DNA of 63,994 nt, the filler included. It is 11 parts of 11 records of this genome, joined end to end, with 100 filler letters (N's around TTAATTAATTAA, not from the genome) between each part and the next. Parts side by side here need not be neighbours in the genome. Positions count along the whole stretch, not along the records: positions 17,418 to 30,270 come from SRR7504441_7129; 10 more parts are not named here. One strand, given 5' to 3'. The position numbers and the translations under genes are program-made. The notes below the pieces were generated by a model, which saw only the letters and a list, made by a program, of their open reading frames with translations, did not search any database and was not told the DNA's origin. Shown piece after piece: positions 3,911 to 59,309 of the stretch. Position 1 is the stretch's first letter; every line of letters begins with the position of its first letter.

Positions 3911-4010
3911 NNNNNNNNNNNNNNNNNNNNNNNNNNNNNNNNNNNNNNNNNNNNTTAATTAATTAANNNNNNNNNNNNNNNNNNNNNNNNNNNNNNNNNN
4001 NNNNNNNNNN
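3911..4010. other. Artificial contig-joining linker (N-run + TTAATTAATTAA + N-run)
   Basis: Identical 100-nt linkers with stops in all six frames, also at 7288-7387, 10902-11001, 17318-17417, 30271-30370, 38170-38269, 47198-47297, 50407-50506, 53648-53747 and 59154-59253. Genes are cut at these points. Confidence 0.98.
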
Positions 4011-7287: not shown

Positions 7288-7387
7288 NNNNNNNNNNNNN
7301 NNNNNNNNNNNNNNNNNNNNNNNNNNNNNNNTTAATTAATTAANNNNNNNNNNNNNNNNNNNNNNNNNNNNNNNNNNNNNNNNNNNN

Positions 7388-10855: not shown

Positions 10856-11001
10856 GGTGAGAGTGGCCTGACAGGGGGGCGAGGCGGGGGTCGGGGGGGG
10901 GNNNNNNNNNNNNNNNNNNNNNNNNNNNNNNNNNNNNNNNNNNNNTTAATTAATTAANNNNNNNNNNNNNNNNNNNNNNNNNNNNNNNNNNNNNNNNNNN
11001 N

Positions 11002-17317: not shown

Positions 17318-17417
17318 NNNNNNNNNNNNNNNNNNNNNNNNNNNNNNNNNNNNNNNNNNNNTTAATTAATTAANNNNNNNNNNNNNNNNNNNNNNNNNNN
17401 NNNNNNNNNNNNNNNNN

Positions 17418-19685
17418 AGGCTTGATAGTAGAGGTGGTGGACGATTGCTTTAGCCGAGCAGCTGAATGAGTTCGTTGCTCGAAGAATGGGGGCAATAGCA
17501 CGTCTTCGCCGCAGCATGAATTCTATTTGTAAAAACAGCAAGGCCTCACTATTAGAAAACTGGAAGGAAAATTTCGCACGGTTTATGTACCAATCCGAGA
17601 GAAAGATGATAGCTGGAGGCTGCACAGCGTGCAGCCGTAGACTTTGAGTCGAAATTGCTTATAGACCAGCAAGAAATCGGCTCGCCGAAACTCGGGTTCA
17701 GTTCGACAGAACCTCGAGAGGTCGCAGTATGGTATGGAAAGGCGCCTGTGGCATCCGACGTACCGCGTGTGCAAGACAATCAGAAGTTCAATTTTCTGCA
17801 ACAAGAACTTTTGAAGCTACAGCAGGCGTTGGCTCATGCAGAAGTCCGTGGTGATAGTGCTACTGAGCGTCTTGACCAAGAGGTAAAGCACTCATCTGAG
17901 CTTGTCAAGCAACTTGAGGAAAGTCAAAAGTTTGACTCTAGTCGAAGCATTCCAAATGAGCCCGCAACAGGCGCCTCTGACTCACGCCTTTTCTTCGAGT
18001 TGGAAGCAGCAAAAGCAAAGCTTGCTGCAAAAGATCGCTGGGTGTCTGTTCTAGAGCAGAGGACCACAAGTCTTCTAAGAAATGTTGTCAACAAGGACGA
18101 TGCCGGGGGGCTGGCTGCTCATTTGAAGGAAGCAGAAACTCAAGTGCAAGATGCATTGCACGGCATGGATTCCCTCAGGAGACAGCTCGAAGCAGAGAAG
18201 CAAAGTAAGGTTGCATGTGAAGCTGAGATCAAAGAACTGAAAGAGCAGATATGCCATCACAGTGAAGAATTGACAACCGTACGTATGGAAGCGAAGTCTA
18301 TTCAAAGTGAAAGAGAGCAGTTCAAGTTGAGCTTGTCTGAGGGTAGTAGACGTTTTAGCAGTATTCAGCTTGAAGAAAGAGAAGCCCGATCTGAGTCATC
18401 AGAGTTGTTACGTCTGAAGGAGAAAACTCTTGAGGAGACCAACAAGACACTTGCCATTGCCGAAGGGAGAGTAGCCCAGCTTGAAAAAGCTCTGCAGAAT
18501 GTTACCTTATCCCCCCAACAACAACGCAGACAGGAGGATGCAGGGCACAGTGCAGCTATTCGCAACCTGGCAGAAGCAGAAAGGGAGCTTAAATTCACTA
18601 GAAAGCAAGTAAAAGGCCTCGAGCAGCGTCTGCAACTCATCGAGGAGAGTAGAAGAAAGCTGGATGAGCATCTGCTGACTCTACTAGAGGACAGCTGCTT
18701 GGCAAAGACCCAGCTTGCTGGAGAATGTGCTCTCTCTCAGCTGCTGCGGCAGGAGTTGACAAAGCTGCAAGCCACAAATAGAAGCGATGCGCGCATGGAG
18801 AGTGTAAGCGACTCTCAACTTCGTGCGGAGGAGCTCAGTTGTCAAGTTCAGATTCTTGAGGGTGTCATTGCTACACTTAAAGCACAGAACAAAGAGTTTG
18901 CGACATTTTCAGGCAGCATTCAGGCTAGGCGGGCAGATCTAGCCCAAGCAGCAAACACTCCAAGGGAAAAGGCTTCATTGCATGATGACAAACCAGAGAC
19001 AGAAACCAGACAGGAGGAGGTCAGGGATCAGAGCGCAGCATTACAAGAACGAGTCCGAGAGCTCGAGGCGCAAATTAGAGCCTTGAAGACTCAACAAACT
19101 GCAGCGCCTGATGTGAAAGAATACACGGCATATGTAGCAGTCAAAAGCAAGTATAACCGATCTCGTTATGAGCTACTGTCGCTTTGTGAGGAGTTGAAAC
19201 TTAGAATGCGGCAAATAGATCACGAGTTGTTACAAGAATCCCACAGCAGTGCTCCGGCCCAACAACACAAACAGATCAAATCTACTCTGAAACTCGTCCG
19301 AGCGATTACTGAGGACATTGCACAGGAATGCAATGCGCTAGCAGGGACATTATCAGAGCAGGAAGTCAATGAACTTTCAGAGCAGGGCAAACAAGAGGGA
19401 GGAGAGGCCACTCGATTAAAAAACAAGCTCGCTGCCAGAGAGCAAGAGGTCTCAGCTCTGGAACTCAAACTAAATCAGACTCAAGCTAATCTGGAATCGC
19501 TACAGCAGAAAATGGAATCTGCAGAAAAGAGGACGGGGCATGAACATCTTGCAAAAACAGGAGGAAATACACTGCTCGAAGAAGAGTTGAGGAGGCACCA
19601 AGCTGAGATCAAACAATTGAAGAGCAGCTTGAAAATTGCAACCTACGAGGCTGAGAGGCATAAGCAAAAAGCAAGCCGGCAATAG
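17418..19685 (+). CDS. Large coiled-coil protein (5'-partial)
   Basis: 676-aa heptad-rich ORF, extendable upstream via a probable GC-AG intron 17576-17612. Lower GC than neighbouring genes. Confidence 0.75.
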
Positions 19686-22779: not shown

Positions 22780-23369
22780 ATGTTGGTTGTACGAGTACAG
22801 TGTTCCGTTTGATAACATTCCAACAAGGAGTGGTGTTTGCTAGTGGACAGACACCGTAAATTAACCATTGATTAAGCCTGCAAGTATTTAAGCTGCCCGT
22901 GCACGGGGAGCCAAGGAATCGTCTTTTTGGACATTTATTTAAACCGCTCTTTTAATTATGTTTTGTACGTACGAGTACTGTACTCACAATCATGTAGCCG
23001 ATGTGAGCGGTCCGTGCTCCTCTCCTATGAAAGTAACTCTCGTTGTTCCATTGATGCACGGCTTGAGCCCCAAGATGGTTGGACTTGTTCGAAAACAATC
23101 ATCAATTCATGTTGCTAAGAGAACCAGGCATTCAAGATTTGCCATTGTGAGACCAATACTCGTACATGTACTTGAAATGAAGCTTGCAACAACAATTACG
23201 CACGATAGAGCAGATTGCAGCAGGGGCTGAGTGGGCGCTGGTCCAAGGAGCCAATTGCGCACTTGGCGACCTCGCGGCGGGAAGCTCGGGGCAGCTTTAT
23301 TTGGCCTGCACCCGGCAGACTGATCAGCATCCGTGCTGTTGACCGGGCACAGGCAGCCCGACGGAGCAA

Positions 23370-23480
23370 TTGACCTCAGCCTGACAGCTTTATCACCGTG
23401 CCGACTGGTTAAGCCCAGTTAGTACCTCCGGGCCCAGACCGGCAATCATCTAAGATCAAGTTACTATCATCATCGGGCAA
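23370..23480 (-). ncRNA. Box C/D guide RNA (scaRNA-like) predicted to direct U2 snRNA Gm25
   Basis: Terminal stem TTGCCC/GGTCAA; box C ATGATGA (23473-23467); guide ACTTGATCTTAG (23461-23450), complementary to U2 CUAAGAUCAAGU; D' ATGA; long internal hairpin; C'-like GTGATAA; box D CTGA (23379-23376). The D'+5 rule points to G25. Confidence 0.85.
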
Positions 23481-23631
23481 GCACACAGTCGCCGCCCGGA
23501 GGGGTGCGGACCTGGCGCATCGGGGCCCAGGGCAGCGTTCCAGTGGATGGCATCCTGCGGGGCAGCCAGTCGGTCGAGTGAGAGGCCACAGCCACCAGGC
23601 CGAGCAGGGCAGTGCGATGGGGTGTTAGGTC

Positions 23632-23763
23632 TTCTGTTGGCTGAGCCATAACCGCGGCGGCACGTGGGAGGCCGCAGCGGCTAATTTACTCAGCCTTGAT
23701 CTGGCCAGTTAATGAGGCACACCCGGCCATAGAATATCGGCTGGTGGCTAATAGGACTGGCCC
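23632..23763 (-). ncRNA. Box H/ACA snoRNA (5' pocket targets 18S rRNA UAAUGA-U-U-AAUAGGG)
   Basis: Hairpin 1 GGCCAGT/ACTGGCC; H box AGATCA (23702-23697); hairpin 2 GGCTGAG/CTCAGCC; ACA three nucleotides from the 3' end. Pocket strands TCCTATT and TCATTA, with the target U about 14 nt from the H box. Confidence 0.85.
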
Positions 23764-23995
23764 ATGGGGCTCGGGCGCTAGGCTCGGGCGCTGCACCGCG
23801 CGAGCAACTGGGCGACGCCTCTGGTCTCCGACCCGGCCTCGGCTCACAGGTCTTCATCCAGCTCGGCCAGGCTCACCCCGCACACCGGAGGCGCCCAACA
23901 GCCTCCTCCGCAGGGGCTGAGACAAGCCGGCGCTGGCATTGGCCGGGATCCGGGTGGGTCTTGGAGGTGATGACATCGATTCCGTTGTCGTTGCC

Positions 23996-25747
23996 ATGGT
24001 ACCAACAGCCCAGCACGCCGGGCTTTATCCTCGGGGCTGCAGGTGCTAAACCGGAACCGCACGCCGGACAAGTCGCGGTATGGGTCTCCCCGGCGCCCCA
24101 GCTCCCCAATCGCCTTCAAGCCGTCGCTGGTCGAGCGACAGGACCTGGTGCGCAACCTTACCCGCTCGCGCGGTTCGAACGGCGCTGTGGCAGACCGTCT
24201 TCCGGGCCCCGCTCAGCACGCTGTACCTGTTCTGCGAGTGGACGTTCGAGACGCTGAGCGGACTGGCCATCTCGTTGCTCAAGGACCCCCGGGTCTGGTG
24301 GGTGGGCGGTCCGCTGGCGCTGGCCTACGCCGCTGCCCATCTTTCCTCGAACTCATCCGTTACGGTGGCTCTTGGGCTCGCGCCTCGTCGGTAGGGCCGG
24401 AGCAATGGCGGCCAGGCGCTGGTCACCGAGCTGGACTTCCAATTGTCGTTCATCCTGTGGTGGGCGGGGCTGGGAGTCCTCTCGTCTGTCGGCCTCGGGA
24501 CTGGAATGCACTCCGGTGAAGCCGGCTCGATGGCGCCCACGTGACCGGAGCTGGCGCAGGCATTCTGTTCCTGTTCCCTCATATGATGCGGGTCTGCCAA
24601 GCGGCCCATGACTGCCAGACACTGGACTTTGAGTCTCGTACCGACATGTAAGTCGATCGCAGCCAGGCGCAGGCCTGACCCGTGCCTGGCGCCCGCAGCT
24701 GGTTCAGCACCACGGCCCTCACCTTCAAGTGCCCCGAAACTGACCCAAGCATGGCTACTCCGGTCACATTCTTGGGCTTATTCTGCAAGGTCCCTGCCGC
24801 AGTGCGAGAGAGCACTCAACTGCAGACCTCAGGTGTGCTGGGCCGCGTTCCTCTGGGGGGCGGGCACTGCAGTGGGCGAGATCCCGCCATACGCAGTCGC
24901 TTACGCTGCCGCCACCGCGGGCGAGGCCAATGCTGAGCTGTCCGGTCCCCGCGGCCGACTGTCGCACAGCCTGACCTGTGTGGCAGACCTGGATGATGAG
25001 GCGGGAGCGACCGACGCAGTTACCCGGTGCAAGGTGTGGATGATCGACTTCATCAAGCGGTACGGGTTCACCGCTGTCTTCCTTTTCTCAGCCTGGCCGA
25101 ACGCGATGTTTGACCTCTGTGGCATCTGCTGTGGTGTGCGACTCCAGTGGCTGCAACTGACCTGGTGCGGTGAAGGGAGCTTCCGTATGCCGTTCTGGCA
25201 ATTCTTTGGGGCCACCTTCTGCGGCAAGGCACTCGTGAAGGTGCTGAGCACGCAGCCGGGCGCCCGAGCGGTCGCGGCAGGTCCAGCTTCAAACGGTGTT
25301 CTTCATCACTCTGTTCAGCGCAGAGCATTTGACTCGGTGAGGCTCCGCTGCCAGGCATACCTTGACTCTTGTCTACCAGCGCGCTGGGCTGGCTCCAGGC
25401 CATGCTGCCTGATTGGCTGTACGAGCTTGCTCGCAAGGGCGCCGATAAGGGCAAGGCAAAATTTGAAAAGGGCGGAAGCAGTAGTGGCGGCGACGAGGGC
25501 GGAAGCCTCATGAAAGATGTAGCTGATTCCGCTGCTTGTTTGCTGATTGCGGCTGCAGGCGTGGAATTTGTTGATCGGCGTGATCATCCTGTTCTTTGTA
25601 GTGTCTACAATCGAGCAGCTTGCGCAGCTGCAGCATGTAACCGCCATACCTGAGCCGGGATCCTCAAACCCGGGTTGTTCAGGCCACACGGGAGGAGAGG
25701 GAAAAGAACAAGAGACGCTGAGTACTCTGCCAAGCTCAGAACTTTGA
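23996..25747 (+). CDS. VMP1: Vacuole membrane protein 1 (VMP1/KMS1, DedA/SNARE-associated family), 12 exons
   Basis: Spliced protein contains [70 protein letters not shown]. The first exon is the ATG alone (intron 23999-24042). Confidence 0.92.
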
Positions 25748-30221: not shown

Positions 30222-30427
30222 TCACCGGGCACGAGCAGCCGTCGGAGCACCGTCTGTGTCGGAGCACCGTNNNNNNNNNNNNNNNNNNNNNNNNNNNNNN
30301 NNNNNNNNNNNNNNTTAATTAATTAANNNNNNNNNNNNNNNNNNNNNNNNNNNNNNNNNNNNNNNNNNNNCAACTCTGTAGTATGATGAACATGATAAAT
30401 GATCATGCCAAATGCTGATGCCGAAAG

Positions 30428-38169: not shown

Positions 38170-38269
38170 NNNNNNNNNNNNNNNNNNNNNNNNNNNNNNN
38201 NNNNNNNNNNNNNTTAATTAATTAANNNNNNNNNNNNNNNNNNNNNNNNNNNNNNNNNNNNNNNNNNNN

Positions 38270-47176: not shown

Positions 47177-47299
47177 GGTGGCGCCAACAGAGACTCCNNN
47201 NNNNNNNNNNNNNNNNNNNNNNNNNNNNNNNNNNNNNNNNNTTAATTAATTAANNNNNNNNNNNNNNNNNNNNNNNNNNNNNNNNNNNNNNNNNNNNAA

Positions 47300-50181: not shown

Positions 50182-50894
50182 AATATTATGTGCGCCCATT
50201 AATTTTGAAGCGATGCTCATGGCGATGCTCCAGCTATATATTTAGAGATTTTGTTAATTACTTTGATTTAATAGTAAAAGTCGAGTACCTGGTACGGACT
50301 TCCAGGCCGGGTGGTAGCCGCCTTGCATGACTAGCTCGAACAACGAGTCTGTGGCGGGAGCAAGTTGGTCTCCACAGCAAGGCTACTATTTACTATTTGA
50401 CTATTTNNNNNNNNNNNNNNNNNNNNNNNNNNNNNNNNNNNNNNNNNNNNTTAATTAATTAANNNNNNNNNNNNNNNNNNNNNNNNNNNNNNNNNNNNNN
50501 NNNNNNCTAAATTGGTAATTTCAACTATTAGTAAATTTACTCATGCATTTCTATTGAAAAACTTTTGGTAAATTTAGATGGTGCTCGAGTGGTTGCAGCA
50601 CCATGCACTCAACACGCATGATCACGACGTGCATCAAGGCCGCCCGTTTTCAGCCTACCGCCTACGTCAGCACTGAAGCAATAGCTGCCATTGACACCGA
50701 GGCAAAGGTGAACGTGCAAAATCTGACGATGCAGCATGACACTGTCGAATACAATGACAAGAGCTATACCCCAAATTTGTAAGGGCCTGGGCACGCTACA
50801 GGTACATACCTGTCCCGTACCAGGTACATGTACGACTGTAGCTAGTAGATTGAAAGAGAAGATTGTCGTTGGATTCATGGGGTTTTGAGACCGA

Positions 50895-53647: not shown

Positions 53648-53747
53648 NNNNNNNNNNNNNNNNNNNNNNNNNNNNNNNNNNNNNNNNNNNNTTAATTAAT
53701 TAANNNNNNNNNNNNNNNNNNNNNNNNNNNNNNNNNNNNNNNNNNNN

Positions 53748-58976: not shown

Positions 58977-59309
58977 TCGCAGTCTGACGCCTCCGTTGCT
59001 ACCGGTACCAGGACGGGCCGCAGCTGCCAGTGCTGCTAGCTGCCAGTCAACCCGGTGCAGTTTTTTGTGGAATCGCGCTAGAATCGCGCTAGCTTTCCGG
59101 CCAGTTCGGCCGGGGGTTCATACGGTCGGTGAAATCACGCCCTTCCCACGTAGNNNNNNNNNNNNNNNNNNNNNNNNNNNNNNNNNNNNNNNNNNNNTTA
59201 ATTAATTAANNNNNNNNNNNNNNNNNNNNNNNNNNNNNNNNNNNNNNNNNNNNTAAGGGTACTTTAAGTTCTCATAGGACGCATCTAAGACATTGATTGA
59301 TTGTACATG

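Follow-up and report, generated by a model that had tools for sequence, protein, structure and literature searches.

Two candidate guide RNAs of different classes in a putative non-coding unit beside VMP1 of a green alga

In vertebrates, the genes of the UHG, GAS5 and SNHG family have exons with short open reading frames (ORFs) and carry one guide RNA per intron, the introns being the useful products. The locus considered here lies on the minus strand beside VMP1, in a window of 63,994 nt (the whole stretch of DNA analysed) ascribed to a green alga, and holds one candidate small nucleolar RNA (snoRNA) of the box H/ACA class and one candidate RNA of the box C/D class. Like the vertebrate hosts, it has a short ORF in its putative exons and would carry one guide RNA per intron. 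It differs from them in its two putative introns, in the mixed classes of its guide RNAs and in the normal introns of 42-51 nt around it, and its splicing, polyadenylation and any 5'TOP start are putative. The two RNAs are very probably real guide RNAs, and a single non-coding unit on the minus strand, divergent from VMP1, is the likely origin of both. The favoured reading is a small non-coding unit with two guide RNAs, most likely released by splicing, and the evidence leans modestly towards it. Motifs, folds, complementarities and splice-site quality were computed; transcription, splicing, accumulation and both modifications are deduced from them.

Hosts of this kind have also been described outside the animals. 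In Neurospora crassa, the hosts of clusters I-V are non-coding: their ORFs span only 159-267 bp, each intron carries one snoRNA, and the splice sites are canonical; they were likened to UHG and gas5, and the distance to the 3' splice site was stressed (PMC2780460). The putative model of the alga's locus shares with these clusters a non-animal, short-ORF host with one snoRNA per intron. The Neurospora clusters, as described in PMC2780460, contain C/D RNAs only and were confirmed by reverse transcription PCR (RT-PCR), whereas the alga's candidate combines H/ACA and C/D RNAs and has been read from DNA only. Since non-coding hosts with one snoRNA per intron already exist in Neurospora, the arrangement itself is not new. 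The statement of the initial annotation that dedicated snoRNA host genes are described mainly from animals was overstated in view of these hosts and of the snoRNA set described in Ostreococcus tauri (PMC7671301). The latter, also a green alga from the sea, has a compact genome, intronic snoRNAs and guides targeting small nuclear RNAs (snRNAs). Its 131 snoRNAs comprise 72 intronic ones, 49 in 12 clusters and 10 solitary ones, and five have snRNAs as their sole targets (PMC7671301). Unlike the O. tauri hosts described there, the present candidate is non-coding and putatively spliced.

A counterpart of the C/D candidate by target is found in human cells. Human U2 snRNA is 2'-O-methylated at G25, and this modification is assigned to the small Cajal body RNA (scaRNA) scaRNA2, or mgU2-25/61 (PMC7960923), which is, like the alga's candidate, a box C/D guide aimed at U2 Gm25. 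Human scaRNA2 differs from the candidate in being independently transcribed (PMC2811027) and in having C61 as a second guide target. No similarity to scaRNA2 is seen at the level of Rfam; the likeness is therefore one of predicted function, descent not being shown. In Arabidopsis, the equivalent U2 residue G26 is methylated, so the same conserved position is modified within the green lineage (PMC8053127 Table 3). No guide is entered for G26 in that table, which makes the alga's C/D RNA a candidate for a guide type unassigned in plants. No plant homologue of the C/D RNA was found.

The box C/D and box H/ACA candidates

The box C/D candidate, about 100-110 nt long, lies at 23370-23480 on the minus strand and was recognised as a C/D box pair with a terminal stem and an internal D'-C' hairpin. 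Its C box AUGAUGA (23467-23473) and D box CUGA (23376-23379) are 98 nt apart. The D' box AUGA (23446-23449) differs by one change from CUGA, and the C' box GUGAUAA (23390-23396) by one change from the consensus. The C and D' boxes are separated by 17 nt and the C' and D boxes by 10 nt, and in the predicted fold the internal hairpin brings D' and C' together. A 5-bp outer stem can be drawn by eye in the flanks of the RNA. In the whole window (64 kb, both strands), only two RUGAUGA...CUGA pairs with a terminal stem occur, the other one being inside a long ORF. This second pair, at 18982-19111 on the plus strand, falls in a 690-residue frame (17613-19685); its D spacer pairs over 10 bp, two of them G-U, with the 18S rRNA of locus L047, and it is probably due to chance.

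The 12 nt of the C/D guide (23450-23461) are a perfect complement of U2 snRNA nt 21-32, with no G-U pair and no mismatch; pairing begins at position 1 before the D' box, and G25 is paired at the fifth position upstream of it. The U2 reference consisted of the Rfam U2 consensus and a U2-like RNA in contig L002, and the match to nt 21-32 is the only one of its kind in the window. None of 1000 shuffled guides reached 12 bp against the 5' part of U2, and 15 of 1000 did so against U2 together with one 18S and one large subunit (LSU) rRNA. For targets, the references comprised 18S rRNAs, two complete eukaryotic LSU rRNAs and, as the sole snRNA, U2. The three contigs L001-L003, which are filed as viral in IMG/VR and are about 1.8 kb long, carry the conserved 5' part of U2 snRNA; by Rfam, L002 holds a truncated U2 of 106 nt (49.7 bits).

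In animals, Cajal-body localisation is signalled by the CAB box in the loops of H/ACA RNAs and by a long UG repeat in C/D scaRNAs, and these signals may not apply to algae. UGAG is present in neither apical loop of the H/ACA candidate, and no UG repeat was found in the C/D RNA, which is therefore called scaRNA-like by its target only.

The box H/ACA candidate has a length of 131 nt (23632-23762, minus strand) and was delimited by its fold and by an architecture scan. Hairpin 1 (23762-23703) and hairpin 2 (23695-23639) enclose a hinge with the H box AGAUCA (consensus ANANNA; 23697-23702). The ACA box (23635-23637) begins one nucleotide after hairpin 2 and leaves 3 nt to the predicted 3' end (23632). 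In the predicted structure of the minus-strand segment 23770-23625, AGAUCA joins two single hairpins, and the minimum free energy (MFE) is -63.2 kcal/mol (z -4.35), a value equalled by none of 200 shuffles. Of 27 units with the order hairpin, ANANNA, hairpin and ACA on both strands of the window, the candidate is the best-folding one, at -61.8 kcal/mol versus -58.9 for the next. Several of the other units are located inside long frames, so fold energy alone is not decisive in such G+C-rich DNA. Two further H/ACA-like architectures on the minus strand, at 40121-39974 (-55.0 kcal/mol) and 58208-58062 (-54.5 kcal/mol), lie outside the listed frames of at least 250 residues; an rRNA target was sought for both, and no convincing one was found.

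The pocket of hairpin 1 (23710-23755) is formed by a 5' strand at 23755-23749 and a 3' strand at 23716-23710. It can pair 6 and 7 bp, with one G-U in the 7-bp side, around the UU of the 18S motif UAAUGA-UU-AAUAGGG, and the distance from the top of the pocket to the H box is 14 nt. The rRNA references were eukaryotic sequences contaminating bacterial assemblies. The motif is complete in L047 and differs by one base in the plant-like 18S rRNAs of L051, L043, L037, L016 and L057; L040 and L019 keep UAAUGA-UU-AAUA, and the bases that follow are different. In the five loci with a locatable 18S 5' end (L047, L051, L043, L037 and L016), the motif is at position ~863-865, which presumably corresponds to psi918 of human 18S rRNA. 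Three of 400 shuffled pockets scored as well against 18S rRNA. For hairpin 2, the pocket geometry is right, with 14 nt to the ACA box, if three weak pairs open. Contamination of this kind was seen in at least 52 contigs (L008-L059) from assemblies listed by GTDB as bacterial or archaeal, which have a eukaryote-specific 18S 3' end; they hold eukaryotic rDNA, several of them plant-like.

The case for both RNAs as guide RNAs is convincing in silico. The earlier proposal that the locus serves both ribosome and spliceosome modification agrees with the predicted targets, as the H/ACA pocket fits 18S rRNA and the C/D guide fits U2 G25. Across the whole window, every Rfam family stayed below its gathering score. 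Within 22800-24400, at E up to 10, the sole Rfam matches were mir-727 (E 5) and, at E 3.8, 33 nt of an H/ACA family from trypanosomatids, both regarded as noise. Three metagenome contigs matched the pattern of C box, 2-10 nt, 12-nt U2 guide and NUGA; inspected by eye, they look like chance matches in A+T-richer, coding-looking DNA. Paralogues of both RNAs were sought within the window, and none were found.

Putative exons, introns and transcription

The initial annotation had joined three minus-strand exons in frame across two introns of 293 and 206 nt, and this construction was reproduced from the sequence, in which both intervals are GT-AG. Putative exon 1 (23848-23939) is counted from the ATG at 23939, its 5' end being putative. 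The 43-nt putative exon 2 (23512-23554) was placed by sequence and splice-site scores. The putative last exon (22934-23305) contributes nine nucleotides to the frame (23305-23297), including the TAA at 23299-23297, and continues into a tail richer in A+T, where ATTAAA stands at 22956 and AATAAA at 22939. Putative intron 1 (23555-23847, GTGAGC...CGCAG followed by G) surrounds the H/ACA RNA, and putative intron 2 (23306-23511, GTCCGC...TGCAG followed by G) the C/D RNA. As the introns of VMP1 measure 42-51 nt, these candidates are 4-7 times the local size.

Splice sites were scored with a rough matrix built from the eight VMP1 introns, which was applied to every minus-strand GT (36) and AG (45) in the region 23990-23230. 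The two sites of intron 2, donor 23511 and acceptor 23306, both rank first, of 36 and 45 sites respectively; the 206-nt interval around the C/D RNA therefore has the region's best sites at its two ends. In intron 1, acceptor 23555 ranks third of 45. Branch-like CUGAU and CCGAC motifs occur 17-21 nt upstream of the acceptors. The 3' end of the H/ACA RNA is 77 nt before acceptor 23555 and the end of the D box 70 nt before acceptor 23306, both acceptors reading CAG before G. Distances of 70-77 nt to the acceptor lie in the range favourable for intronic snoRNAs. By these scores, the putative intron around the C/D RNA is better supported than that around the H/ACA RNA.

The joined exons form 47 codons, most likely without a functional protein product. 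The G+C content of the frame is flat over the three codon positions (0.67/0.65/0.71), versus 0.56-0.70 / 0.46-0.65 / 0.74-0.88 in four coding stretches of the window, which show a strong third-position excess. All three frames of the joined exons are flat in this respect, the sample being small. At such a G+C content, ~30% of random 47-codon stretches would be open by the authors' estimate from base composition, and an out-of-frame ATG at 23976 lies upstream of the ATG at 23939. The suggestion that the peptide may be non-functional agrees with the non-coding look of the frame.

Transcript data bear on the 3' part of the unit. RNA contigs were obtained from four (X1, X2, X4 and X7) of nine runs, each of the nine containing only 0.05-0.09 of the sampled words. 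Contigs from two studies cover the putative last exon at 23017-23280 (X4, polyA) and 22997-23223 (X7, rRNA-depleted); the contigs are strandless. The ATTAAA and AATAAA are situated just beyond this coverage and are signal-like hexamers on the minus strand alone. No contig of the four runs lies over 23281-24050, which comprises exons 1 and 2, the junctions and both small RNAs, and this gives no evidence either way. Compared with the window, the X4 contig has 6 substitutions and 7 inserted bases in 264 nt, whereas the VMP1-exon contigs of X1 are nearly identical to the window, which points to related strains in the sea or to a faster-evolving untranslated region.

Proposed spliced release and its alternatives

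Several observations on the splice sites, on O. tauri, on relatives and on the RNAs themselves weigh against the favoured reading. Donor 23847 of intron 1 ranks 11th of 36; its score of 4.4 is below all eight training introns (minimum 5.4), and it has U instead of G before GU. The second-ranked donor, 23595, is 41 nt before acceptor 23555 and would define an alternative intron (23555-23595) similar in size to those of VMP1, leaving the H/ACA RNA in exon 1. Donors 23350 and 23343, which are weaker (score about 5), stand 45 and 38 nt before acceptor 23306 and would leave the C/D RNA exonic. In O. tauri, all 72 intronic snoRNAs are in protein-coding genes, adjacent intergenic snoRNAs form unspliced polycistronic clusters, and sections 15-16, 22 and 24 report no spliced non-coding snoRNA host (PMC7671301). 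The main rival explanation is a plant- or Ostreococcus-like dicistronic cluster, transcribed by RNA polymerase II (Pol II) into a precursor from which endo- and exonucleases would release both RNAs; long introns would be unneeded, and only introns of 38-45 nt, downstream of each RNA, would be spliced, if any. It draws on the weak donor 23847, on the three nearer donors at normal intron distance from both acceptors and on the ten independent intergenic clusters of O. tauri, some of which overlap small mis-annotated coding sequences (PMC7671301). Against such a cluster, the top donor and the top acceptor of the region flank the C/D RNA 206 nt apart, and each RNA ends 70-77 nt before an acceptor; it is considered unlikely, though it is to be taken seriously.

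The remaining contrary points concern the RNAs. Neither of them has an Rfam match above noise in 22800-24400 (E up to 10), and relatives sought in metagenome contigs were not found, hence there is no support from conservation or covariation. The terminal stem of the C/D RNA is weak, with three contiguous pairs, and its fold is unremarkable (z -1.41). A target for its D-box guide (10-nt spacer) was sought in the references and none was found, the best match, 11 bp long with two G-U pairs, falling in a variable part of 18S rRNA and in two references alone. For hairpin 2 of the H/ACA RNA, no conserved target was found in the reference rRNAs and the 5' part of U2. When 20 hairpins of the 10 best-folding architectures were scored against 18S rRNA, the candidate came top with 12.5, closely followed at 12.0 by a hairpin within a long ORF, which leaves the 18S target plausible and not proven. 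The last result, together with H/ACA-like folds down to -58.9 kcal/mol in coding sequence of the same window and the lack of Rfam matches, might suggest chance motifs in a G+C-rich spacer that yields no stable RNA. Two independent guide-RNA architectures side by side in one clearly non-coding stretch, and a 12-bp U2 match exactly at the box and on a residue known to be methylated, make this very improbable. A real 47-residue micro-protein, with the guide RNAs as passengers of its gene, the usual situation in animal and O. tauri hosts, would explain why the frame runs through both proposed junctions without a stop and ends after 9 nt of the last exon. The flat codon-position G+C in all three frames, the frequency of open stretches at this base composition, the out-of-frame upstream ATG and the uncertain 5' junction speak against it, and little probability is given to it. 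Slightly less remote, yet still improbable, are two independent small genes with promoters of their own, the H/ACA RNA starting at or near its own transcription start site, which would lie downstream of the VMP1-shared region. In O. tauri, ten snoRNAs come from monocistronic intergenic genes (PMC7671301), and about 230 nt of non-coding DNA extend from the H/ACA 5' end to the VMP1 ATG. The RNAs are, however, only about 150 nt apart with no promoter or terminator element recognised between them, neither is followed by a T-run, and strong splice sites surround the C/D RNA.

The favoured non-coding unit would lie head-to-head with VMP1, between the VMP1 start and the A+T-rich tail, and its products would be the two guide RNAs. 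A Pol II precursor would be spliced, this being the most likely route of release. The C/D RNA (about 105 nt) would be freed from the 206-nt intron, and the H/ACA RNA from the 293-nt intron, or it would remain in the first exon if the nearer donor were used. Exonucleases would trim the excised intron, while small nucleolar ribonucleoprotein (snoRNP) proteins would shield each RNA. The pocket of H/ACA hairpin 1 would then guide the conversion of a conserved 18S rRNA uridine into pseudouridine, and the D' guide of the C/D RNA the 2'-O-methylation of U2 G25. The initial annotation had one guide RNA of a different class in each long intron. The two classes hold in silico; the donor of intron 1 is weak and has a competitor in the second-ranked donor 23595, and the placement of each RNA in its own long intron is nearly balanced, inclining slightly to doubt. 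Somewhat more tentative is the full proposal that a non-coding gene, driven divergently from the promoter region of VMP1, keeps two introns of 4-7 times the normal length solely to house guide RNAs, one of them for U2 Gm25/26.

VMP1, the source organism and the meaning of the locus

VMP1 begins on the plus strand with the ATG at 23996-23998, which is followed by a 44-nt intron (23999-24042) and was located by homology to P0121. The exon from 24043 has no in-frame ATG, and in P0121 the residues encoded from 24043 come straight after the first Met; the start is therefore the ATG at 23996. The first exon ends with the start codon alone, and the intron begins directly after it. Four VMP1 introns are seen as joints in RNA contigs; all four joints skip GT..AG intervals, of 46, 51, 44 and 43 nt. 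A fifth, of 42 nt, was fixed by the loose end of an RNA contig, and three further ones (44, 51 and 42 nt) by homology to P0121, giving 42-51 nt overall (n=8). The description of the genome as one of ~40-nt introns is thus valid for this neighbouring gene. The 56-bp promoter said to be common to VMP1 and the minus-strand unit stands as a distance of 56 nt between the two ATGs (23996 and 23939), not as a mapped promoter, and the two transcripts may overlap head to head.

The identity of VMP1 comes from the protein search, in which named matches carry the VTT domain; with Pfam, the pieces of VMP1 gave a sub-threshold VTT match alone (E 0.037). The VMP1 frame is 44-47% identical to green algal proteins (Trebouxia, Parachlorella, and Micractinium 'Vacuole membrane 1') and 53-55% to unnamed proteins. 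The best named relative of a 694-residue kinesin frame in the window is from the prasinophyte Cymbomonas (42% identity), the best unnamed matches reaching 45-46%. Because the kinesin and VMP1 frames match prasinophyte and green algal proteins, the source is taken to be a green alga, with no close sequenced relative in the collections searched, which is more precise than the 'protist' named before. The window is G+C-rich eukaryotic nuclear DNA with A+T-richer spacers, and seawater metatranscriptomes contain contigs at least 95% identical to the VMP1 exons. The window contains ten places with two 44-N blocks around 12 bases each (880 N in total), at 3911-4010, 7288-7387, 10902-11001, 17318-17417, 30271-30370, 38170-38269, 47198-47297, 50407-50506, 53648-53747 and 59154-59253; the pattern may reflect masking of one repeated element of ~100 nt.

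The locus is mildly new in its green-lineage setting, in the contrast with introns of 42-51 nt and in its candidate guide for U2 G25/26. If the splicing is true, a green alga would join the organisms in which a gene is retained for the sake of its introns alone, and the locus would be a clean natural example of an embedded RNA dictating intron length amid very short, uniform introns. A divergent dedicated host, if true, would mean that host genes of the UHG type occur in the green lineage too, with intron size set by the cargo. The C/D RNA is a concrete candidate for the green-lineage methylation of U2 G25/G26, a residue adjoining the branch-point-recognition sequence. For annotation, short 'orphan' frames beside divergent promoters may, in genomes of this kind, belong to guide-RNA precursors and not to protein genes.

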